A DNA stretch of 41,293 bases, from NCBI GenBank assembly GCA_018238545.1, contig JABCTC010000030.1, forward strand, positions 1 through 41,293, read 5' to 3'. The notes under the pieces are model-generated. The model was given only the letters and a program-made list of their open reading frames with translations, was not told where the DNA came from and did no database searches. The stretch comes from Candidatus Heimdallarchaeota archaeon (lineage in GTDB: Archaea; Asgardarchaeota; Heimdallarchaeia; Heimdallarchaeales; Heimdallarchaeaceae). Below are positions 190-16,499 of this stretch, piece by piece (positions within the stretch are counted from its first letter, which is position 1; each line of letters opens with the position of its first letter). A program made the position numbers and the translations under genes.

Positions 190-678
190 TTGGTGTATAA
201 ATTGCCAGATGATGTTTTTATTTTAGATAAAAGTGGACTACCATATTATAGCAAATGCTTTGGGGGAGAAACATGTAAAATGAGACCAGATCATTCTTTA
301 CAGACAGGATTTTTAGCAGCACTATATGCTTTTTCAAAAGAATCATATGGACAACAAGAAATTAGAACAGTAGTGTTCAATGACATGAAATTGCATTTCA
401 AAACTGATCAAGAAAAAGATATCATAGTTGTGTTTACGTCACCATTGAGTGAAAAAGAGGAAGTAGTTGAGGGACAAATGGATATGACTTTAAGAGCTTT
501 CCTCGAAAATCATAATGATGATATAGGTAGAGGATATGTTGATGCAGACAAATTTACAGGATTTGATCAAATATTACAAGACATAGGAGTAGTAAAAACA
601 AAACCTATGGGAATGATAAATCTAGGAGAAAAAGTGGGTTTGTGGAAGAGAATCTTTAGAAGATATAAACACAAATGA
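190..678 (+). CDS. longin-like domain protein (Asgard eukaryotic-signature type)
   Basis: FILDKSGLPYYS...LQTGFLAALYAFSKE...IRTVVFNDMKLHF matches the longin/roadblock-like strand-helix pattern. Confidence 0.65.
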   Translation: MVYKLPDDVFILDKSGLPYYSKCFGGETCKMRPDHSLQTGFLAALYAFSKESYGQQEIRTVVFNDMKLHFKTDQEKDIIVVFTSPLSEKEEVVEGQMDMTLRAFLENHNDDIGRGYVDADKFTGFDQILQDIGVVKTKPMGMINLGEKVGLWKRIFRRYKHK

Positions 679-822
679 TTTTTCACTTTTACACTTCCTT
701 AAACTTCTCTTCTGCAATTAGTAAAAATTCCAATCTTTCTTCTTCCTACTATATTTATTGACCATTGTAAATTTTTGGAAAATCTGCAAAATCCTTAAAA
801 ATTTGCTTGTCTTTAGTTTAAT

Positions 823-1353
823 GTGGTTCGAGTTCCAATTTTGATTTATACTCATTTCAAACTTTTTTTTCCTATAAGGAATAAAGATAGACATTTGAGT
901 TGTATACGGTGTGGAAGTGAGAAAACTAAAACAGGCTATATTGTTAAATTTGTAGTGTTTATCTTTTGTTTCTATATTCCTATTCCAATAGAGTTTACTC
1001 CTTATTATAAATGCAAAGAGTGTAAAATCAGATTCACTAGACAGAAAGCGCTGATAAATCGTTTAACACCAGGTGTATCCAATCTTCTTGGATGGTATAG
1101 ACCAGAAAACCAAGATATACTAAATGATTTTTCTTTATCTGAGCTCATAAGTGTATCTGAAGATAGCAGATTACCTCCAAGCGCAGTTTTGTATGTGAAG
1201 ACACTTGTAAAGTCTTTTGAAGAGAAAAATAAAATTAAAAGAGAGAAAGAAAATAAAGCAATTAGAATAGCCTGTCCTGAATGTGGTGCTCTAATCTGGA
1301 GTAATGACAGAAGATGTAATTATTGTGAAGCTATTCTACAGGATGACAATTAA
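823..1353 (+). CDS. zinc-ribbon protein
   Basis: CIRC...FCFYIPIP...CKEC and C-terminal CPEC...CNYC. Confidence 0.6.
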   Translation: MVRVPILIYTHFKLFFPIRNKDRHLSCIRCGSEKTKTGYIVKFVVFIFCFYIPIPIEFTPYYKCKECKIRFTRQKALINRLTPGVSNLLGWYRPENQDILNDFSLSELISVSEDSRLPPSAVLYVKTLVKSFEEKNKIKREKENKAIRIACPECGALIWSNDRRCNYCEAILQDDN

Positions 1354-1357
1354 AATT

Positions 1358-2104
1358 TCAAACATTAAACCATATATCTTCTGAGATACAGACAATTCCT
1401 GATTGCTTGATTAGTTTAGTTTCAGGATCTACAACAGACTTGGGTATCCATATAGGTTTGTCAGTAAATTCTTCAATGAGTGCTTGAAAAGCTTTCTCTG
1501 TTTTAATATCTGTCTTACCCTCTTGATAAACATAAAACTGTTGCCGTTTTATCATTAATGCTACCATGTGTTGGAAAATTTCTTTTATATTTTCTCCAGT
1601 TTTTGCAGATACCTCATAATAGGGCATTTGCTTCCCTAATTTATTATATACTGCATTCAGATATTTTGATATCTCTTCGGATGATACTACTTTTTCTTCT
1701 TTGAGGTCATTTTTATTTCCTATTAGTATCATTGAAATTTGTTGGTCATCCAATGCATTCCTAACCTCTTCCGCCCACTTTGGAAGTGCAAGAAAAGAAG
1801 CTTTATTTGATAAATCGAATATTAAAAATACTCCATATGAACCACCATAGAATATTGGTCTTTCATCTGAGAATCTATCATGTGCTGAAGTCTCCATAAT
1901 CTGAATTCTTACTTTGTAATCTTCTATGCGTTCCCGCAGAATAGTTTGAATTGTTAAATCAGTTGCCCCAAATCCGACCCCAATAGTTTGCGAATATTTT
2001 ACGTTGAATTCAAAAATGCCTGGGAAATATCTTTGGATTATTGACGTTTTTCCAGTCTTTGAATTCCCTACTACAACCGTTTTAAATAAGAAATCAAATA
2101 GCAT
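1358..2104 (-). CDS. Rab-like small GTPase with divergent G3 box
   Basis: G1 GNSKTGKT, TIGVGF switch I, G3 ETSAH (canonical DTAGQ), G4 NKND, G5 SAK. Confidence 0.9.
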   Translation of the reverse strand: MLFDFLFKTVVVGNSKTGKTSIIQRYFPGIFEFNVKYSQTIGVGFGATDLTIQTILRERIEDYKVRIQIMETSAHDRFSDERPIFYGGSYGVFLIFDLSNKASFLALPKWAEEVRNALDDQQISMILIGNKNDLKEEKVVSSEEISKYLNAVYNKLGKQMPYYEVSAKTGENIKEIFQHMVALMIKRQQFYVYQEGKTDIKTEKAFQALIEEFTDKPIWIPKSVVDPETKLIKQSGIVCISEDIWFNV

Positions 2105-2110
2105 GAAACA

Positions 2111-2773
2111 CTATATCCTCCCTTTCTTCTTGGATTTCATTTTTCTAGGCATAGAAGCAGCAGCTCCTGTCATGTCATCTCCTGGATCTTTAGGATAGGG
2201 AGTAAGCGCCAAACCGTCGCTACTACCATAGAAGCTACTTACAATCTTTAGTAATGTCTTGAATGCTTCATCAACGTTTTCTCCTGTTTTTGCAGAAGTT
2301 TCAATATAAGGAACAGAAAAGCCGGACCATTGCGATAGAGAACGGGCATATTCTTCAGATTGTTCTCGCATAATAGGATCTTTAGCTATCGCTCGAAGGT
2401 CACTTTTATTACCAATTAATACCATTGGAACAACTCTATTACTATTGTTCTTAAGAAGTTCTGCAATCCATGATGGAATATTTTCGAAACTAGAACGGTG
2501 AGAAATGTCAAAAACAAGAAGGCAACCAGAAGTTCCTCGATAGTAAACCTCACGGACTGCTGAGAAGCGTTGTTGGCCTTCTAAATCCCAAATCTGAGCA
2601 ACGAAATCTTGATAATTAATTTGAAGTCGTTGTACAGCAAAATCTGCTCCGATTGTCATGGAGTAGCCGTCTTTGAACCCTTCCCCTAGATAGTTCTTAC
2701 GCAAAGAAGTTTTACCAACATCTCCATCTCCCAACAAAGTTATTTTGAATATTTTCCTTTGACCCGCTGCCAT
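2111..2773 (-). CDS. Rab-like small GTPase with C-terminal tag
   Basis: G1 GDGDVGKT, TIGADF, WDLEGQQRF, YYRG, NKSD, ETSAK; close paralog of 15813..16379. Confidence 0.95.
   Translation of the reverse strand: MAAGQRKIFKITLLGDGDVGKTSLRKNYLGEGFKDGYSMTIGADFAVQRLQINYQDFVAQIWDLEGQQRFSAVREVYYRGTSGCLLVFDISHRSSFENIPSWIAELLKNNSNRVVPMVLIGNKSDLRAIAKDPIMREQSEEYARSLSQWSGFSVPYIETSAKTGENVDEAFKTLLKIVSSFYGSSDGLALTPYPKDPGDDMTGAAASMPRKMKSKKKGRI
2141..2206 (-). repeat. shared C-terminal tag, copy 1 (LTPYPKDPGDDMTGAAASMPRK)
   Basis: 18 of 22 aa identical to copy 2 at 2838..2903. Confidence 0.9.
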
Positions 2774-2813
2774 TCTGTTTTTCCCTTCATGAAATGCTTA
2801 TCTATTGTTCTTC

Positions 2814-4250
2814 TTATTCTTCTTTTGTGTTCTTATATCTTCTAGCCATACCTGCTGCTGCACCCGTCATATCGTCACCAGGATCTTTAGGGAAAGGAGT
2901 GAGAGTTTTATCTGATGAGTGGAAACGACTTTTGATAGGAATAATTAATGTGCTGGGGGAATAGCGTTTAATGACTCTAAAAATTTCAGTTCTATTTTTT
3001 AGATGACGACACAAGTGAATGAAATCTGTGTGAAAAATTGAAAGATAAGAAAACCATTTTTTCTTCCAAAAAGACTTTTTTACCTTGTAAGTAATTATGA
3101 AAGGAATTTTGGTATAAAGCTTATAGGGCTCATGTTTAGAAATCAAAAAAAGTTGTACCATTTCAAGATTTTCAACGAATAATCCTGGTTGAATAATCCT
3201 TTCTTCAATTAATCTTGATTTAGTTCTAAAGAGTGTTCTAGCCGAAATATCATGTGTTTTTAATATATTATCAATACTAGGTTTCTTAAAATCCATTTCA
3301 CAGTTTCGTAAAAGATGAGTAACAGCTGATGAATCTTGATTAGGATAAGAAGTTTTCATGGATGAAATTAGTTGTCTATTTTTGGTGATTCTATACCTAA
3401 AGTTCTTTAAACTTTGAATTCCTTTTCCTATTCGTGAATAGGTTTTCCAGTTCAATACTCTTTGTGACTTAGGTGTATTATTCTCCCAATTTTCTATTGA
3501 TATTCCTTGAATCAATATTTCTGAATTAAAAATCAATCTCTTATCCTTTACATAATAATATTCTGAATCCTTTTCTTTTTCTTGTTTTATTCCATGGATA
3601 AATGTCGTTGTATCAATGAGTGATGATTTTTCAGGAAAAAGAAGGAAATAGTCAATTAGAACAGATTGATTATCTTTGTTTATTAATTTATTAATTGCAA
3701 AGAATTCGTGAAGATTTAAACGGGAATAATCTATGAAGCTTCCAAGATAAACTCTCTTCTTCTTTAGATTTTTGAGTAAAATACTAATTTCTTTTTCTGA
3801 AACTCCTAGTTTTTCTGCTAAATCTTTGAATAATGAGCTAGGATTATTACTGAGTTCTTTTATTATTTGCTTCTCTAAATCTGAGAAATGTAGACCTAAC
3901 ATTTTCGTAAAATAATCAAGAACATCTTCCAAAATCATCTCTCTTGCATAAATTAGATCATGAAATGCTTTTAATTCACTCCAAAAATTGTCAATCTCAG
4001 AAAATTCCCAGAATTCATTTCTGTCTAATTCGGAGTCATTGAAGAAGTATTTGACGAAGAAATCAGTAATATCTATTTTTAGATTTGAAGTGAACTTTGG
4101 GAAAAAATCACGAAAAATATTAGTAGTTCTAGCTTTCGAATATTGTTGTATGTTTAAAGAAAACTCATCTGGTGAAATCCTTCCTTCTAATAGGTCACTA
4201 ACTGGGGCAGGTTTCGTAGATGTTGAACTATCAAAGTTACTATCGTTCAT
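2814..4250 (-). CDS. winged-HTH (Lrp/AsnC-like) regulator with two HTH motifs
   Basis: LEKQIIKELSNNPSSLFKDLAEKLGVSEKEI and KPSIDNILKTHDISARTLFRTKSRLIEERII. Confidence 0.7.
   Translation of the reverse strand: MNDSNFDSSTSTKPAPVSDLLEGRISPDEFSLNIQQYSKARTTNIFRDFFPKFTSNLKIDITDFFVKYFFNDSELDRNEFWEFSEIDNFWSELKAFHDLIYAREMILEDVLDYFTKMLGLHFSDLEKQIIKELSNNPSSLFKDLAEKLGVSEKEISILLKNLKKKRVYLGSFIDYSRLNLHEFFAINKLINKDNQSVLIDYFLLFPEKSSLIDTTTFIHGIKQEKEKDSEYYYVKDKRLIFNSEILIQGISIENWENNTPKSQRVLNWKTYSRIGKGIQSLKNFRYRITKNRQLISSMKTSYPNQDSSAVTHLLRNCEMDFKKPSIDNILKTHDISARTLFRTKSRLIEERIIQPGLFVENLEMVQLFLISKHEPYKLYTKIPFIITYKVKKSFWKKKWFSYLSIFHTDFIHLCRHLKNRTEIFRVIKRYSPSTLIIPIKSRFHSSDKTLTPFPKDPGDDMTGAAAGMARRYKNTKEE
2838..2903 (-). 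repeat. shared C-terminal tag, copy 2 (LTPFPKDPGDDMTGAAAGMARR)
   Basis: 18 of 22 aa identical to copy 1. Confidence 0.9.
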
Positions 4251-4305
4251 TGACTATCCTACATTTATTAGAGAGTATGATATATAATGGTTCTTGTGAA
4301 CATAG

Positions 4306-4337
4306 TAACCATAGGTGTATAAACTAACCATAAGTGT
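4306..4337. promoter_or_regulatory. direct repeat TAACCATA(G/A)GTGT x2, candidate operator upstream of 2814..4250
   Basis: 4306-4318 and 4325-4337, 12 of 13 bases identical. Confidence 0.4.
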
Positions 4338-4343
4338 GGTGAT

Positions 4344-4481
4344 CTGCTTGAACTGTTTTTTTTCCTACAGGGAGCAAATTTGGGATCTTGCTCTGCCTGT
4401 TATTTAGCTGGTGGAGCTGGTGGATAAAGCTAAACAGCTAAGCAGTTTTTCCGACAAAGTGTAAATTTGGGGAATTACACT
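4344..4481 (-). ncRNA. candidate structured intergenic RNA element
   Basis: nested inverted repeats ctgctt/aagcag, acagg-gagcaa/ttgctc-cctgt, tttagct/agctaaa and agtgtaa/ttacact. Confidence 0.35.
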
Positions 4482-4490
4482 AATCCCATC

Positions 4491-5864
4491 TTATGGTGTG
4501 GTTGCAGTTGTGTTTCCATTTGATACGTGTTTGTATAGATATGATCCATTAGTGCCGTTACCGTTACCATTGGTTCCATATTCAGGAGCAACACCATTGG
4601 CCATTTTGACATCTCCGAATTTGTTATTCTTGAGTTTTTCATCAATACTTTCTAGTGTTTTATTAAGGATGAAATCTTCGTCAACTTTCCAGTATTTTGT
4701 AGCCATATTCATATTATCAAGCTGGAATGGATAATACATACCATGTTTTCCAAAGAAGTCTAATGAACAAATTTGATAATCTTTGAAAGTGTGCCAAATA
4801 ATATAATTTAGTTTGGTGTCTAAATAGGGAGGAATGGTGAATCTAAGGAATATGCCGTTATTTAAGAGCTCAAAGCCTGTTTGAAATGGTGGAGTTTCTT
4901 CATGTAGAAGTCTAAATAACTGAGCTTTATCCTTGTTTGGTACGTTCTTGATGATATATGCTCTAGAGACATGTTGTTCAAACAATTTTCTACTGAAATT
5001 CCATCTGGGGTTAGTGATAAGATGGTGTCTAACAACATTATAGTATTTACGACCAAAGTCTACTTTGATATGATGTTCATTACGTGTATCAAAGAACTCT
5101 CGTAGGTTTTCAAAGATGAGAGACTCTTTTTCAGTAAGGCTAATCTTCTTTCCTAGATGCATGTAGTGCTTTCTGTAGTGGTTGATCAAAGTGGTTTGTT
5201 TGGTTCTAATTCCTATGTCATCACCGTTCTTAAAGTGAGTTGTAAGATCCTGTAACAATAGATAATGTAGTGGCTCAAGGCTGTCAAGATTTACAGCTGA
5301 TGGAAGTCTAGGTAAATCTTCTGCCTTCTGCTTTCTACTTTCCCAGAAACCTACAATATCGTATATTTCAGGTTCTTTAGTGTATCTGGGTAAAGGTTCA
5401 GGCTTTCTAACTCTGTATCCTGTAGCTTTGTCAACCTCATAGCTGTCGCAGTATTCTTGTTCAACCAAATGATCAAGAAACTTCAAGAGTAAAGGTTTAG
5501 TTTCTTCAGGCATGTCGAAATTCGCTACCATACCAAATTTTTCTCCATAGAATCGATTGTAGCTTCTTATGTAGTCAAAAGAAGAAAATGCCATCTGAAG
5601 GAGAGTGTATTGGTGTAGTGAAGAAATATCGAAAGTTACTAAGAAACGAGTGAGTTGTAGTCTTTCAGGAACAAAGGAAGCTAAAGGTACAGAGAGTATG
5701 TCTCGCTTTTTGAGAGAGTTAACCCTTCGAATCAATGTCTGTGTAGATGTTCCCAATTTCTCAGCCATAGTGGAATATGGCTCTAACGGATAGTTCTGCA
5801 AAACCAATAAGATTTTTCTATCTAGCGGGTTTAATTGATCTATTTTTATGTCTGTTTTTTCCAT
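4491..5864 (-). CDS. Lrp/AsnC-family winged-HTH regulator, extended/duplicated architecture
   Basis: N-terminal LNPLDRKILLVLQNYPLEPYSTMAEKLGTSTQTLIRRVNSL, a RAM-like segment, and a second degenerate LEPLHYLLLQDL unit. Confidence 0.8.
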   Translation of the reverse strand: MEKTDIKIDQLNPLDRKILLVLQNYPLEPYSTMAEKLGTSTQTLIRRVNSLKKRDILSVPLASFVPERLQLTRFLVTFDISSLHQYTLLQMAFSSFDYIRSYNRFYGEKFGMVANFDMPEETKPLLLKFLDHLVEQEYCDSYEVDKATGYRVRKPEPLPRYTKEPEIYDIVGFWESRKQKAEDLPRLPSAVNLDSLEPLHYLLLQDLTTHFKNGDDIGIRTKQTTLINHYRKHYMHLGKKISLTEKESLIFENLREFFDTRNEHHIKVDFGRKYYNVVRHHLITNPRWNFSRKLFEQHVSRAYIIKNVPNKDKAQLFRLLHEETPPFQTGFELLNNGIFLRFTIPPYLDTKLNYIIWHTFKDYQICSLDFFGKHGMYYPFQLDNMNMATKYWKVDEDFILNKTLESIDEKLKNNKFGDVKMANGVAPEYGTNGNGNGTNGSYLYKHVSNGNTTATTP

Positions 5865-5884
5865 TTTTTTTGTTCTCCATAATT

Positions 5885-6215
5885 TTTCAGCTGGTGGGAG
5901 CTTATTTGTGGAGTTGAAATGGAGGTGATTTCCAGTATAACTGGATAGAATAGAAATCTAACAGAGACAAATGCGAGAGACGACTTGTTGAGACCCTGAT
6001 TTGGCTCTGAATTAGACTTCTCTTCTAGACCTCTAAATTGTTTTTACGGATTGTTTAGATCCGCGGTTTGACCCCTTGTCAGTAAGTTCAATTTTGCTAG
6101 TGGTAGCCAGAATTCCTCATGAAAAACCTGTAAGGACCTATGACCTCTCTAAGGCCCGTGGTTTTCCTTTCTCGCCGAGAAATGAGGAAAGGGGGTGGGG
6201 TTTTTCTGGCGATCG
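5885..6215 (-). ncRNA. candidate structured leader or ncRNA between the peptide gene and the regulator
   Basis: GC-richer than flanks; stems gccagaa/ttctggc (6106/6204), ttcctcat/atgaggaa (6113/6182), aaaacc/ggtttt, tttctc/gagaaa, cggat/atccg, tccag/ctgga. Confidence 0.45.
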
Positions 6216-6237
6216 TGATAGTTTTTATTTAAATGGT

Positions 6238-6546
6238 TTAAGTGTATATGCCACCTATTGGTTCATCAGGAAATCCACCTGTTGGATCCTTAAATAAACC
6301 GCCAATTGGCTCGTCTGGAAATCCGCCTGTTGGATCCTCTTTAAACAAACCACCTATTGGTTCGTCTGGAAATCCGCCTGTTGGATCTTCTCGTAGATCA
6401 AAGGTGTAATCAGTGCAATGCACTCCCTTATGATCTGACATTTCTATTACTAATTTCCCGGTAGGTGCGTTTAGAGCGATTGAGCTCGCAACAACAGCTA
6501 CGAAACTTATTACAAAGATAACCCCAAATATTTTTTTCGCTTTCAT
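6238..6546 (-). CDS. secreted tandem-repeat peptide precursor
   Basis: Sec-type signal peptide (MKAKK + hydrophobic + ALNA), short pro-region, three (E)DPTGGFPDEPIGG cores with synonymous differences; GGTGG SD-like site upstream. Confidence 0.85.
   Translation of the reverse strand: MKAKKIFGVIFVISFVAVVASSIALNAPTGKLVIEMSDHKGVHCTDYTFDLREDPTGGFPDEPIGGLFKEDPTGGFPDEPIGGLFKDPTGGFPDEPIGGIYT
6241..6390 (-). repeat. three coding tandem repeats of about 48-51 bp
   Basis: EDPTGGFPDEPIGGLFK / EDPTGGFPDEPIGGLFK / DPTGGFPDEPIGGIYT. Confidence 0.95.
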
Positions 6547-6593
6547 TTTGCTTTTCCACCAGCTAAATTGAGCTTGTCTAACGATTTCCAGCG

Positions 6594-6625
6594 TACTATT
6601 TAAGATTTGTTACAATTTTCCATTT
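6594..6625 (-). promoter_or_regulatory. putative archaeal promoter of the peptide gene
   Basis: minus-strand CTTAAATA TATA-like box about 50 nt upstream of the ATG, with A-rich sequence upstream. Confidence 0.4.
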
Positions 6626-6679
6626 TCTAGCCTTTTTTGGAAAATAATCACAAACACATGCCTTACCAAAGGCTCAACT

Positions 6680-6712
6680 CTTTATGTATTCCTTTATGTA
6701 TGACTTTATGTC
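6680..6712. promoter_or_regulatory. CTTTATGT x3 at 12-bp period, candidate operator array
   Basis: copies start at 6680, 6692 and 6704. Confidence 0.45.
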
Positions 6713-6906
6713 GGAAAAACGTTTTACTTAGATAAACGCTTGAAATGTAAGGCAACATGTGTTGCGGTTTACATATTGTCAGAACTAAGAGCTATATGCT
6801 AGCAATATGTGGGTAATACTGCACACAGAAATAATGCCCCTCCAAAAATATTTATTATGATTTTTGTTTGAAAAAAAAGAAAAAGGTTTTGTAATTGAAG
6901 CTTATT

Positions 6907-7068
6907 TCATTTGAATTTAGCATGCTTTTTCTTAAATACAATTACTACTGTACTAATTCCTAAGGATAGAATTATTCCAACCATTGAGATAGATGTTGGT
7001 TTAATGTACCCCTATTCTGATGCTTTAATAATATAATCAGCTAGAAATTTACTATGTGGAAATTCACT
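6907..7068 (-). pseudogene. 3' remnant of a paralog of serine hydrolase 8484..9662
   Basis: translates SEFPHSKFLADYIIKASE*GYIKPTSISMVGIILSLGISTVVIVFKKK, versus NEFPFREIVADYIIKASEEGYIESIAITLGSVILSLGISTVVIVSKKK. Confidence 0.85.
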
Positions 7069-7166
7069 TTACTTGATCTTAAACTGTTTTTTCTTTGACA
7101 TATTAACTATTGTGATAATGCTAAATGGTAGAATTATTGAAATCAGATAAATTGGTTCATAGCCTT

Positions 7167-8210
7167 CTACAAATACAATTTATTTTTTGAAAGCTTAATC
7201 TGTATCAGAGAAACGATAACCCAAATTGGTACTAATACTAGAGGTACTAGATAAACTAAATTGTTTTTTATTTTGTAAATCACTATGGATATATTTTTTA
7301 TTTCAAACCAATATTCAGTTCCTGATGTTAAGATTAGTAAACTAATGCCATAAGGGAGTTCAACAGTTATCGTACCTCTAACATAAAACTTATCTGAAGC
7401 AGCATTCTGATATTCTAAATATATAATCTCAACAGAAGTATTGTACTCTGCTGCTATTATGAGATATGCTTTTTCACCTTGAAGAGGATGTACAGCGCCC
7501 TGAGGCTTTATTCGAATCGAACTACCACTTGCCAAAACAAAGGAGTTTTCATAAACCAATACATAGTTACTATCTTGTATAGCAAGAAATGTACTAAACA
7601 TTAACATTGACATGATAAATACTACTGAACCTAGCTCAATTACTTTCGATAATTTAAGTTTTGAGAAATACTTCTGACTTCTGATGATTTTTTTATTAGT
7701 ATGTTTACTCATGGGCATTCGATAGAATATGTATTTCTTAGTTTTCTTCTTTTCAAATATTGAAGCTAAAAACCCCAATCCCATAAACGCATCCGCTCTT
7801 CTTTTACTACCTTGTAGACTTCCAACTATTGCTACGTATATATATAGAAGACCAAATATAAGATACATAGGAGTCATTAAAAGATGATAAATCCAACCTG
7901 GCTTCCCTTCCATTCTTATTCGAAATTTGTCTTTAGGATTGTAAGAAATTGGTCTGAAATGACTGGATCCTTCTATTATTCTTGTTTCTTTAGGCTGCAA
8001 AACAATCTTAGGTGTTTCATCAAAAATGGCCGGTGTTTTTGAGGATTTCAAATCTACTATAATTTTTATTGTTTGAGGTTTTTTCTTCGGATTAAATAAT
8101 TCTATTTGGTATTCCGGATGATATTGTTCCTCCTCTACAATATCTTTATCCACTTGAAAATTTACTTCTACCCCGTAAAATCTGAAAGATTTCTTTATTT
8201 CATAATCCAT
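7167..8210 (-). CDS. hypothetical membrane protein
   Basis: 347-aa ORF with several hydrophobic segments and an AGGAG SD upstream. Confidence 0.7.
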   Translation of the reverse strand: MDYEIKKSFRFYGVEVNFQVDKDIVEEEQYHPEYQIELFNPKKKPQTIKIIVDLKSSKTPAIFDETPKIVLQPKETRIIEGSSHFRPISYNPKDKFRIRMEGKPGWIYHLLMTPMYLIFGLLYIYVAIVGSLQGSKRRADAFMGLGFLASIFEKKKTKKYIFYRMPMSKHTNKKIIRSQKYFSKLKLSKVIELGSVVFIMSMLMFSTFLAIQDSNYVLVYENSFVLASGSSIRIKPQGAVHPLQGEKAYLIIAAEYNTSVEIIYLEYQNAASDKFYVRGTITVELPYGISLLILTSGTEYWFEIKNISIVIYKIKNNLVYLVPLVLVPIWVIVSLIQIKLSKNKLYL

Positions 8211-8483: not shown

Positions 8484-9662
8484 TTATTTTAGTCTATTTT
8501 GTTTTTTCTTAGACACAATCACTACAGTGCTAATCCCTAAGGACAGAATTACTGAACCCAGTGTGATTGCAATAGATTCTATGTACCCTTCTTCTGAAGC
8601 TTTGATGATATAATCCGCCACTATTTCTCTAAATGGAAACTCATTTTCATTTAAACTTGATGTGAATACTGCAACAATATCATGCTGTGGAATAACACAT
8701 ATTATCTGTCCTGCCCAACCTAGAGCTAAGTAGGCATCAATTAGTGGATATACCCACCATTGGTATCCGTATTCTGTTCTATATGATAAGAAGATTTTTC
8801 CTTCAGAAGCTTGACTGACCCACTCCTCTGAAACAATTTGATTAACATTCCATGTACCGTTGTTCAGAAACAAATAGCCTAGTTTTGCCATATCTTTTGG
8901 CAATATCTGTAAGCCACTTCCTCCAAAACAAATTCCTTGAGGATCTTCTTCCCAGAAATAATCTGAAAATCCTAGTTTTGAAAAGATTTGATTTTCTGCG
9001 TAATCACGTGTAGATATCCCTGTTGCATTTTCGATGATAGCAGATAGAAGATGTGATCCACCTGAATTATATTTCCATGAATCCCCTGGTTCATCTTCCA
9101 TCGGTTGGTTTAGTACGAATTCAACCCAGTTAGAGCTATCATATAATTGTCTGAAAGTATTTTCAGGATCATAATAAGAGATCTCTTCATTCCATGCAAT
9201 ACCTGAAGTCATTGTTAACAAATGTTCTATGGTTATGTTTTCTTTATTTTCTATATTTGGCACATCAACATGTCCCAAGAATTCTAGAATTTTCTGATCT
9301 ACACTCTCAATATATCCTTCTTCTATAGCTCTACCTATCAAGGTTGAAGTGAAGCTCTTCGTAACTGAATAAACCGGATGCAGCGTCTCTGAACTATAAT
9401 ATGAGAGGTATTCCTCAACTACCATATAACCATCTTTTACGATGAGAACACTGTCTATAGCATAATTGTTCTCGTCAATATATTCAAACATTTCAACAAT
9501 TCTTTCTTCGTTCATCTCTACTTCTTCGAAAGATGCAGATTGCCACGATTCAGTTGGCCAATAGTCTCTCTCTAGACTGCTCTCAGTTAACCCTATTTGA
9601 TTGCTTGATAAAGAAACTATAAACATCATAATTATACAGATAGTGAAATGCCTTTTTTTCAA
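8484..9662 (-). CDS. membrane-anchored serine hydrolase, beta-lactamase/AmpC-like (peptidase S12-like)
   Basis: SVTK (SxxK), LLTMTSG, WKYNS, ALGWAGQ; signal peptide; C-terminal TM plus KKK; GGTGA SD. Confidence 0.92.
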   Translation of the reverse strand: MKKRHFTICIIMMFIVSLSSNQIGLTESSLERDYWPTESWQSASFEEVEMNEERIVEMFEYIDENNYAIDSVLIVKDGYMVVEEYLSYYSSETLHPVYSVTKSFTSTLIGRAIEEGYIESVDQKILEFLGHVDVPNIENKENITIEHLLTMTSGIAWNEEISYYDPENTFRQLYDSSNWVEFVLNQPMEDEPGDSWKYNSGGSHLLSAIIENATGISTRDYAENQIFSKLGFSDYFWEEDPQGICFGGSGLQILPKDMAKLGYLFLNNGTWNVNQIVSEEWVSQASEGKIFLSYRTEYGYQWWVYPLIDAYLALGWAGQIICVIPQHDIVAVFTSSLNENEFPFREIVADYIIKASEEGYIESIAITLGSVILSLGISTVVIVSKKKQNRLK

Positions 9663-10803: not shown

Positions 10804-12591
10804 ATGAAAAAGAAAACATCTTTCTATTTGATATTTGGTTTATTAGTTATATCTGCTTTCTCAGCATCTTTGATTCAAAATACTTCAGCTGCAACAGTAT
10901 TTTCTATAACACTCTTATGCCCCAGTACGAATCCTGAAAGAGTGCAATGGGCTTTAATAATTGAGTCTGAGTTACCTGAAATTGGGATTGAAGCAAACAT
11001 GGATTTAACAGGATGGACACCAATAATTTCTAGAACATTCGGATATCCATTAGGAACTTATGATTATATCCCATCTTATGATGAAGGAGGTTATGATGTT
11101 CTGTTTATGAGTTATAGGTGGGACCTTGATATGGATCCTACAGGTTTGTATGAGTCATCATCAATTTACCCAGCTGGGGTCAATTATTATCAATACAATA
11201 ATTCTGAATACGATGCTAATAAGACTCTTTATGATAATGCAGCTATCCCTATTGACCGGACTAACTTAGCCTATAATTTGCAATCGATTCTGTACGAGGA
11301 TTTACCTGTAATTCCAGTTCTCTATCCCACTGATTATTATGTCTATAATGATAATCTGACAGGAATAGATCTTCTTCTACTTAGTTTATCAGATTACAAA
11401 GTTACTGCTTGGGATGATCCTATTGATCATGAAATTAACTACAGCACCCCCTATCAGTTTTTTGAATTTAATACTTTCAGAATTGAAAATCCATATGCTG
11501 ATATGAAGTGGGCTAATCCTATCTATGGTTCACTTTTTACACATATGCAAGGTTCACATTATTATGACTTTGAGATTGCAAACAATTTCGCATACGAAAT
11601 ACATTCTGGAGGAATAAATATAACTGCTACATTGGATTCAGCTGCAGAGTTTAGTGATGGAAGTACTGTACTCCCCTCTGATATAGAATATACTTATGAA
11701 CTTCATATGACACCTGAAGTACTCTCACCTTTTTATGGAGAACTCACTAGTATGTTTTCATCTAATGATTCAATAAGTATTGATGGGTCAGATATCGCTG
11801 GAGGTAAAGTTGTGTTCGATGTTAATCAAATGTTAAACTTTCCTGAAAGCATCTTAAGTTACGGTATTATAGATAAAAGTGAAGTTGAACCACTAATTGC
11901 AACACATGGATATGATATCTTCAATGATGCACCAGGAACAGGAAATGCAGGATGATCTTTAGTGAAATCTTGTGGTCCTATGATGTTAGATTCGTTTAAC
12001 GTGAGTGCAAGCAAAGCTCATCTTATTCCAAACCCTTATTGGCATGGAGATGCTGTGGAATTGACGAACCTTAACTTTGAGTATTATTCTGATAAGAATA
12101 CAGCTTTAGCAAATCTAGTTGCAGGTTCATTGGATTTATTGGATGCTGAGTATAGCTATATTCCTGATGATTTAACTGGATTGGTTGGAATAACAGCAAC
12201 TAAAAGTAAGAGTCTTGAACATCATGAAATAGGTGTAAATATGCGTCATCCAATTTTAGGAACAGGAGAACTAACTCCAGCAGGAACAGCAGAGGCAGGT
12301 AAATATGTCAGAAAAGCTATCAGTCACACCATTCAACGTCAATTATTCGTTGACACACTAATGTATGGTCTAGCTGATCCAGCCACTTCTCCAATCCCAA
12401 ATGGTTGTGTAGGATATGATAATGCACTTGTCCCATATGAGTATAATCTAGATACAGCAAAAACATACATGGAAGCAGCAGGATATAGTTTAATAGTTAT
12501 CTCAGAGTTTTCACAAGGTTATTTATTCCTACTTGGATTACTAGCAGTAAGTTCATCACTGATATTCTTTATTCGAAAGAATAGGCGATAA
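10804..12591 (+). pseudogene. ABC peptide/nickel substrate-binding protein (family 5), circularly permuted, interrupted by in-frame TGA at 11953-11955
   Basis: both ORFs are in one frame (GNAG*SLVKSCGP); motifs FSDGSTVLPSDIEYT, NPYWHG, VRKAISHTI, YNLDTAKTYMEAAG; signal peptide and C-terminal TM. Confidence 0.8.
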
Positions 12592-15812: not shown

Positions 15813-16379
15813 TTATTTCATACTTTCTAAAGTCAAACTTTCAAAGTAACTAGAAATATTTTCAGCAAGAATACTAAAAACTTTATCAACGTTAAGACCA
15901 GTTTTAGCAGAAGTTTCTAGGTAAGGAACGTAAAATCCAGACCACTCAGAAAGTTGGTCAGCGTACTCTTGAGCATATTCCATAGGAACAGAATATGGAG
16001 TAGATTCGCGCAAATCAGCTTTGTTACCTATTAGTACTATTGGAACTATGCGGTTTTTGTTGTTACGAACTAGTTCATGCAACCAATTAGGGAGAACCTC
16101 ATAAGTCTCTGGACGAGAAATATCAAAAATTAAAAGTGCTCCAGCTGTTCCACGATAGTAAACTTCACGGACTGCAGAGAACCTTTGTTGGCCTGCTAAA
16201 TCCCAAATTTGTAAAGTGTATTCAACCTGATTAAGAGCCATTTTTTTAACTGCAAAATCTGCCCCAATTGTCATCATGTACCCTTCCTTGAAGCTTTCAC
16301 CTAGATATATTCTACGAAGGGAAGTTTTACCAACTGCTCCTTCTCCCAGCAGGGAGATTTTGAAAATTCTTTGGCTCAC
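15813..16379 (-). CDS. Rab-like small GTPase (canonical motifs)
   Basis: GEGAVGKT, TIGADF, WDLAGQQRF, NKAD, ETSAK; likely GTG start at 16379 after GGTGAT. Confidence 0.95.
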   Translation of the reverse strand: MSQRIFKISLLGEGAVGKTSLRRIYLGESFKEGYMMTIGADFAVKKMALNQVEYTLQIWDLAGQQRFSAVREVYYRGTAGALLIFDISRPETYEVLPNWLHELVRNNKNRIVPIVLIGNKADLRESTPYSVPMEYAQEYADQLSEWSGFYVPYLETSAKTGLNVDKVFSILAENISSYFESLTLESMK

Positions 16380-16499
16380 AATATCACCATTTATACATAT
16401 AATTTTACCCAATTATTCTATTTAAACAATTTGATAGAGGGAACGGGCAGTATGTCTGGAAGCCAAAAGAAAGATATATTAGCAATTCAAGGACCATAC

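Follow-up and report, generated by a model that had tools for sequence, protein, structure and literature searches.

A secreted peptide–tandem Lrp regulator gene pair with optional tagged GTPase cargo in Asgard archaea

Organization of the locus

We analyzed a 41,293-nucleotide stretch of Candidatus Heimdallarchaeota archaeon contig JABCTC010000030.1 (assembly GCA_018238545.1) – hereafter the window, to which all coordinates refer. Homologues place the source organism within the Heimdallarchaeaceae. An initial annotation of this DNA proposed that a secreted repeat peptide, two Lrp-like regulators, and two atypical Rab-like GTPases form a single signalling circuit. The sequence features that it described are real, and the five co-oriented open reading frames (ORFs) are present, all on the minus strand: the peptide precursor (6238–6546), the first regulator (4491–5864), the second regulator (2814–4250), the first GTPase (2111–2773), and the second GTPase (1358–2104), with gaps of 373, 240, 40, and 6 nucleotides in that order. 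The locus has two layers: a core (4491–6644) made up of a conserved promoter palindrome, genes for a secreted three-core precursor and a tandem-Lrp regulator, and, between these two, a covarying structured spacer; and a cargo (683–4309) that carries the second regulator and the GTPases. The peptide and first regulator of the proposed circuit stand as a pair, but an output through the GTPases is doubtful, their genes lying on a 3.6-kb insert that most relatives lack.

The peptide gene (6238–6546, minus strand) encodes a 102 amino acid precursor with a basic start and a hydrophobic stretch to about residue 25 (predicted signal peptide, residues ~1–25), a linker ending in YTFD, and three identical 13-residue DPTGGFPDEPIGG cores (6349–6387, 6298–6336, and 6250–6288). 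The codons of the three cores differ synonymously only. No Pfam, PHROG, or NCBIfam family matched the precursor.

Upstream of the precursor lies a TATA box with a sequence (TGTAACAA) resembling the transcription factor B recognition element (BRE; both within 6597–6614, minus strand). This arrangement, which is the archaeal promoter layout, is conserved in orthologous loci; a sigma-70 promoter scan was set aside as unsuited to archaea. Abutting the BRE/TATA is a palindrome, TTTCCA-N15-TGGAAA (6616–6644). The initial annotation noted operator-like repeats; most short repeats in the locus are unremarkable, but this palindrome is kept in 13 related loci, with a 15-nucleotide spacer in 10 and at 53–55 nucleotides from the peptide’s leader motif in 12, and it is the sole intergenic instance among five in the genome. 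An exact-match search of the genome for a wider regulon returned none. Because the palindrome holds a conserved position upstream of the BRE/TATA, the usual archaeal activator site, we read it as a candidate operator at which the first regulator probably acts.

The leader motif itself, AGCTGGTGG (6556–6564, minus strand), lies ~10 nucleotides before the peptide ATG, contains a Shine–Dalgarno (SD)-like GGTGG, and precedes the peptide start in all orthologues whose DNA extends that far. In this genome, GGTGG and TGGTG are over-represented upstream of start codons, and the 16S 3' end reads GATCACCTCCT. We found four copies of AGCTGGTGG in the window, where 0.14 are expected; the genome contains 40 copies, and four of the five that fall outside ORFs of at least 100 amino acids are in this locus. 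The motif occurs in sense orientation only before the peptide. One antisense copy (5889–5897, plus strand) sits just upstream of the first regulator and is confined to this genome and its closest relatives, while two more (4402–4430, plus strand; motifs at 4406 and 4415) occupy the 3' flank of the first regulator and could form a duplex of ~18 base pairs (–28 kcal/mol) with the leader. Such 3'-flank copies, two to four in number and 65–100 nucleotides behind the regulator stop, are found in all loci of this subclade and in none of the other clades. The initial annotation counted the motif, in three intergenic regions, among the signals that tie the five genes together. No copy accompanies the GTPase genes, and since the antisense copies are also present where no GTPase follows, the tie does not extend to the GTPases: AGCTGGTGG belongs to the peptide–regulator unit, as the ribosome-binding region of the peptide plus its antisense copies.

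The 373-nucleotide gap between peptide and regulator contains a structured element (6026–6213, minus strand) with three invariant blocks (6184–6213, 6065–6078, and 6026–6036) and a long hairpin (6121–6167). Across the alignment, the hairpin arms vary in sequence while their pairing persists, and cognate arms pair better than arms exchanged between clades (p=0.003; 720 permutations, six clades, with two mis-anchored sequences left out). Taken as a whole, the element folds with a z-score of just about –1.2, folding energies do not settle its strand, and in an RNAalifold run on a MAFFT alignment, register shifts erased the hairpin. Of the three AGGTC words in the element, one lies in the hairpin loop; AGGTC is also the regulator’s ribosome-binding region in several genomes. 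The spacer further contains a UUUCCUC block that resembles an anti-SD sequence and several copies of SD-like GAGGUC. Rfam 15 gave no match at E up to 1 across positions 1000–7300, and the element is best read as a candidate cis-regulatory RNA. Resemblances to a hepatitis delta virus-like ribozyme and a cyclic di-GMP riboswitch were dropped on inspection by eye, there being no P1.1/L3 arrangement and no Rfam match. Bacterial matches to the spacer pattern lacked both a peptide gene and the downstream element and are probably fortuitous.

The first regulator (4491–5864, minus strand) is a 457 amino acid tandem Lrp/AsnC-type protein in which a winged helix-turn-helix (wHTH) and a RAM domain occur twice, with a divergent second HTH region and a disordered tail. 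Pfam assigns HTH_AsnC, with PF13404 above cut-off and the N-terminal wHTH followed by RAM. The AlphaFold2 model (pLDDT 84.5) is a confident fold with two wHTH-RAM modules, and its Foldseek matches are NirDL and Lrp/AsnC proteins. Identity to the Lrp/AsnC and NirDL/AhbAB comparison structures (PDB 4ch7, 4czc, and 2cyy) is 12–19%. The protein scores 20.6 bits against an AhbA cut-off of 140, which places it outside the siroheme decarboxylases, and no haem genes were noted in the loci read.

The peptide–regulator pair across Asgard archaea

Loci that carry an orthologue of the first regulator were read, flanking DNA included, from 16 further genomes of the genus and from several metagenome contigs. 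A small repeat-peptide ORF upstream of homologues of 4491–5864, as the initial annotation anticipated, proved to be the rule: peptide, spacer element, and regulator occur together in 17 of 17 genus genomes that have a regulator orthologue, and additional metagenome contigs show the same trio. Scanning the metagenome collection at the protein level gave no match. Wherever upstream DNA was reached, it encoded a small exported peptide with two to seven cores, near-identical within one precursor and lineage-specific between precursors (DPTGGFPDEPIGG in the window; GPDDGQTDTPLQG, GPDGGYPDEPIGG, GPVEDEPIG, and EPTDAWPDEPVGG elsewhere). The signal peptide is followed immediately by the first core in many lineages; in this subclade, cores come after Lys or Arg. 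The initial annotation had also seen no adjacent enzyme for ribosomally synthesized and post-translationally modified peptides; none lies beside the peptide in any orthologous locus read, though a distant enzyme would escape such a reading of neighbourhoods.

The repeat precursor derives from a family of secreted proteins with an immunoglobulin (Ig) fold: the Ig domain was lost, and the C-terminal DPxGG..DEP motif was multiplied. Ahead of more distantly related regulators of the family lie genes for secreted proteins, 150–180 amino acids long and ending in FDPPGG..(D/E)P. One of these, from the family’s complete genomes, ends in DPPGGSGDEPIGG – almost the core found in the window. The Ig-type precursor is modelled as an Ig/FnIII sandwich with the motif in the loop before the last strand, and the window precursor retains the YTFD of that strand as a remnant of the domain. 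A fold search returned generic FnIII/Ig matches only (Z up to 10.6). The Ig-type family forms 356 clusters at 50% identity and corresponds to no Pfam or NCBIfam family.

In this ancestral form, the pair is shared by two Asgard classes. Thirty of 36 regulator-family genes follow a secreted protein with an FD[PS]P tail, as against 13 of 3,605 genome ORFs with a similar ending. When loci were picked by their precursor, the regulator lay directly behind in 32 of 32 with downstream DNA, and in 81 of 82 overall. The precursor family is present in 79 of 250 Asgard genomes, comprising Heimdall lineages and Thorarchaeota, and in none of the 54 genomes of another large family.

A precursor that is always upstream of, co-oriented with, and close to its regulator would also be expected of a secretion-monitor leader. 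The ribosome would stall at DPPG or DEP until pulling by the translocon released it, and the stalled ribosome, together with the spacer RNA, would set translation of the regulator. SecM, VemP, and MifM are likewise exported or membrane-targeted ORFs with a Pro-rich C-terminal motif ahead of a regulated gene, and the Ig-type precursor has the length and signal peptide of SecM and VemP. DPP and PPG are strong ribosome-stalling triplets; FDPP is almost invariant in Ig-type precursors, 15–22 residues before the stop; and the anti-SD-like and SD-like words of the spacer suit translational control. The repeat forms fit poorly: most lineages have lost the PP pair from them, and in several the first core directly follows the signal peptide (precursors of 62–76 amino acids), too close for pulling. 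Moreover, the downstream gene encodes a transcription factor in 81 of 82 loci rather than a translocation component, and the motif is FDPP, with no RAPP or RAGP. We consider a stalling leader quite unlikely.

The surroundings of the cassettes are rich in secreted enzymes. Thirty-seven of 82 touch a gene for a secreted subtilase (S8), a caspase-like (C14) protease, or another secreted hydrolase or WSNGG-start protein, mostly divergent; for comparison, the genome has 19 such secreted hydrolase genes. Genes for OppA/DppA-type binding proteins adjoin several peptide loci. Elsewhere in this genome (G000 C56, L001:4394–9138), two Ig-FDPP and tandem-Lrp cassettes stand in tandem around a secreted caspase-like (C14) protease.

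Frequent divergent subtilase genes are also what would be expected if the pair were simply a regulator and its target. The tandem-Lrp protein would then sense an amino acid or small molecule, for which the Lrp fold is a known sensor, and control an adjacent surface protein and secreted protease. The surface protein would be a strand-exchange Ig subunit or a protease inhibitor or bait, a role suited to an Ig/FnIII fold whose C-terminal strand packs on the domain, and the repeat form would be a degenerate acidic surface peptide. This account leaves two things unexplained: why, once the domain had gone, the motif alone persisted and multiplied with selection acting on the protein, and why pairing is near-obligate and one-to-one over two classes, including paralogues within one genome. 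We regard it as unlikely.

Several variants of the cassette were observed. In a sister genus (L049:8600–8960, L050:6090–6440, and L051:4318–4668), the precursor–regulator spacer has no hairpin element; it contains three direct repeats with an internal palindrome, TTAGAC..GTCTAA, which are candidate DNA operators. Another regulator subfamily (G000 C18:4198–6254 and L209–L212) follows a 290 amino acid exported, membrane-anchored protein with a polyproline linker, not an Ig-FDPP protein.

A candidate peptide-signalling unit

We favour the reading that the peptide gene, structured spacer, and first regulator form an autoregulated peptide-signalling unit, RRNPP-like in logic though not homologous, and judge it an even prospect. 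It is preferred because the motif alone was kept and multiplied, because precursor and regulator pair one-to-one, and because proteases and peptide-binding proteins lie nearby. The motif has outlasted loss of the Ig domain and has been amplified two to seven times with lineage-specific sequence.

In the signalling unit, the signal peptide would export the precursor, and cleavage would release short Pro/Gly/Asp-rich peptides, each beginning in a fixed X-Pro register; the cuts would fall either at the end of the signal peptide or behind Lys/Arg or small residues. An oligopeptide ABC transporter would re-import these peptides, and the RAM domains of the tandem-Lrp protein would bind them. The conserved position of the palindrome beside the peptide promoter suggests that the regulator would act there in a positive loop. 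A nearby secreted protease or hydrolase is probably under its control as well in the ancestral cassette. The spacer RNA, whose structure is partly supported by the arm pairing, and the antisense leader copies may tune expression post-transcriptionally.

One candidate processing enzyme is encoded upstream of the peptide in the window (8484–9662, minus strand): an exported, C-terminally anchored hydrolase of the beta-lactamase fold (S12-type; Pfam PF00144). In several orthologous loci, the hydrolase gene lies a short distance ahead of the peptide gene. The 3' end of this gene matches a duplicated 148-nucleotide stretch (6923–7070 and 8500–8647; 74% identity).

Several observations weigh against peptide signalling. 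Known Lrp/AsnC RAM domains bind amino acids, not 10–15-mers. The modelled Ig-type precursor has the last strand of its tail packed against the sandwich, an arrangement also compatible with a structural role. The neighbour counts were drawn from related genomes and are not independent, although the pattern spans two classes. Regarding import, the genome has five OppA-like genes, and the copy in the window (10804–12591, plus strand) is split by one in-frame stop at ~11955. This OppA/DppA-type gene, whose paralogues encode ~600 amino acids, is either a pseudogene or affected by a sequence error. The covariation of peptide core and regulator that the initial annotation looked to is only partly borne out: cores follow the regulator tree, but the correlation with the regulator is no higher for the Ig-type tail (rho 0.44) than for the Ig body (0.53), a result that does not demonstrate covariation over and above shared descent. 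Sites that change with the most divergent core (e.g., Q328E) are too few to interpret. Co-folding of the regulator (residues 9–418, with alignment) with the three cores (residues 50–102) scored 0.00, which gives no verdict and is not counted as evidence.

The closest parallel in logic is with the RRNPP systems of Bacillota (Rap-Phr, PlcR-PapR, NprR-NprX, and Rgg-SHP). In both, a small exported precursor gene adjoins a one-component cytoplasmic regulator, the active part of the precursor is C-terminal and sometimes repeated, and peptide sequence is lineage-specific. Oligopeptide permease and secreted proteases or phospholipases belong to the RRNPP circuit, and here gene neighbourhood points to the same components. 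The receptors differ: Pfam finds no TPR repeats in the first regulator, and its model is the alpha/beta wHTH-RAM fold repeated twice. Further differences are that the ancestral precursor carries a whole Ig domain, that the precursor is always upstream, that a structured spacer separates the genes, and that the host is an archaeon.

Among Lrp/AsnC (FFRP) proteins and NirDL/AhbAB, the regulator shares the wHTH and RAM module and, with NirDL, two modules per chain; it differs from these proteins by its low identity, its score far below the AhbA cut-off, and its near-obligate pairing with a secreted protein. An Lrp-type regulator has been placed in the same physiological area, archaeal density signalling, in Haloferax volcanii, where quorum sensing uses a secreted small molecule and no direct sensing by the Lrp/AsnC-type CsmR was shown (PMC13286277); unlike the Asgard pair, that system has no peptide precursor. 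In the open-access literature we found neither peptide-based cell–cell signalling in Asgard archaea nor an Lrp-fold peptide receptor. The cassette is a real, undescribed Asgard gene pair with an optional cargo of tagged GTPases. Being widespread and often beside secreted proteases, it may tell when sediment archaea invest in extracellular digestion. Its repeat form is the most testable member, since it names a 13-residue ligand, a receptor, and an operator, all of which can be made and assayed without culture.

Tagged GTPase cargo

The cargo is a variable insert (683–4309) between the 3' flank of the first regulator and a convergent, conserved longin-like gene (190–678, plus strand) at the opposite edge of the insertion hot spot. 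In place of the insert, one relative (regulator identity 95%) has ~54 nucleotides and G016 has a different gene; the content differs again in L282, L284, L285, and L286. Misassembly was ruled out, as identical proteins of the same block are present in two JGI assemblies.

The second regulator (2814–4250, minus strand; 478 amino acids) is a copy of an HTH regulator family that is single-copy in Heimdallarchaeaceae, with 42% identity to its core paralogue (C86), which lies beside core genes elsewhere. Its TATA-like box (4280–4287) is inside the insert. Pfam describes its HTH as AsnC-like, and only this HTH region aligns with the family of the first regulator.

The initial annotation called both GTPases atypical, and both do have unusual G-box residues. 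Pfam finds Ras domains in each. The first (2111–2773, minus strand; 220 amino acids) is a Rab-like copy with 92% amino acid and 88% nucleotide identity to a core Rab (C71:8625) that is single-copy in other genomes of the genus. G1–G5 are complete, the ratio of non-synonymous to synonymous substitution rates is 0.076, and A18D and A65E fall at positions invariant in 22 core orthologues. These positions correspond to Ras G13 and A59, and A65E recurs in L285. K-RAS A59E undergoes fast nucleotide exchange that is independent of a guanine nucleotide exchange factor (bioRxiv 10.1101/2021.06.23.449327); by analogy, the first GTPase may exchange fast as well.

The second GTPase (1358–2104, minus strand) is a more divergent Rab-like protein, 41–44% identical to core paralogue C114, fused to a small TEKA..WIPKS domain. 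It has G1, G4, and G5, its G3 reads ETSAH, its tail has a weak PHROG match (E 0.005), and an orthologue is present in none of the 23 other genomes of the genus. The same is true of a zinc-ribbon gene (Pfam) that converges on it within the insert (823–1353, plus strand). The WIPKS domain also recurs as small ORFs or remnants upstream of peptide loci (L044:6981–7289, L046:11970–12278, L047:11772–12035, L175 ~2550–2800, and G000 C26 ~34255).

Neither GTPase tail ends in the prenylation cysteines of eukaryotic Rabs. They resemble in this respect the Asgard Thor-Rab (Tran et al. 2024, PMC10933270), a Ras-family G domain that also lacks such cysteines; unlike it, they are accessory duplicates with a 22 amino acid portable tail or a fused WIPKS domain, and with substitutions at the Ras G13 and A59 positions.

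The shared C-terminal tag reported by the initial annotation is genuine. The tail P[FY]PKDPGDDMTGAA ends the 478 amino acid regulator (22 amino acids; 2832–2897, minus strand) and the 220 amino acid GTPase (22 amino acids; 2135–2200, minus strand) and no other ORF of the 3.6-Mb genome. Within the subclade, tagged copies also occur as a regulator alone (L282), a Rab alone (L286), and four tagged genes plus fragments (L284); L285 carries a tagged regulator and tagged Rab with an identical 40-nucleotide gap, on a contig that ends short of the first regulator. Ten tag copies show 206 synonymous against 81 non-synonymous codon differences, over 10 and 32 sites, respectively. Since the changes are mostly silent, the tag has been selected as a peptide; the silent changes and differing flanks also ruled out a DNA recombination site.

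These recurrences raise the question of whether the tagged second regulator and Rabs are the output of a full five-gene circuit, with the tag (PxDPGDD) imitating the core (DPxGG) and docking on the first regulator or a shared partner. A tagged regulator and/or Rab stands behind the first regulator here and in L282, L284, and L286, with the same neighbourhood in L285, and this association, which recurs in four other assemblies of one subclade, is not pure chance. The 40-nucleotide gap and A65E shared with L285, the exchange behaviour of K-RAS A59E, and the mostly silent changes in the tag also favour such a circuit. However, the genes are absent from most loci, including those of near-identical relatives, and their content is shuffled and partly broken (a split regulator in L284, a truncated tag in P0200, and a stop codon in the G015 chimera). 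The tagged Rabs form a single clade (support 93) under relaxed but purifying selection, so their recurrence reflects descent. A related tag ends ABC transporters and other unrelated proteins elsewhere, and a GTPase output of the circuit is thus not established. We consider the five-gene circuit highly doubtful.

Most improbable of all, in our view, is a peptide-pheromone system with a multi-core precursor and an Lrp-fold receptor to which a pheromone-mimicking tag couples a fast-exchange Rab-like GTPase and the second regulator. If true, an extracellular peptide would be wired to a small GTPase in archaea closely related to eukaryotes. The likeness between tag and core is short and may be due to chance.

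In the reading that we favour, the second regulator and GTPases are tagged duplicates of housekeeping genes, gathered at an insertion hot spot in one subclade; purifying selection on them is relaxed, and the circuit can do without them. In this insert, a nearly invariant Asgard Rab has been duplicated and given a portable tail and switch substitutions, which offers a small-scale view of how Rab paralogues diversify.

The tag is a portable tail of this genus. In three other genomes (G015, G019, and G008; L288–L290 and L294–L297), its variant GDPPDSPASMPRKL forms the C-terminus of unrelated proteins – ABC transporter subunits, wHTH proteins, and HEAT-regulator fusions – with 102 synonymous and 11 non-synonymous codon differences. 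Long HEAT-repeat proteins fused to copies of the second-regulator family were observed in G015 and G019 (L132:29–3025, L131:55–3300, L133:6357–9359, and L105), and in G015 a HEAT-regulator-Rab chimera is interrupted by a stop codon. A third Rab-like GTPase in the window (15813–16412, minus strand), 61% identical to the tagged one, is untagged and conserved across the genus.

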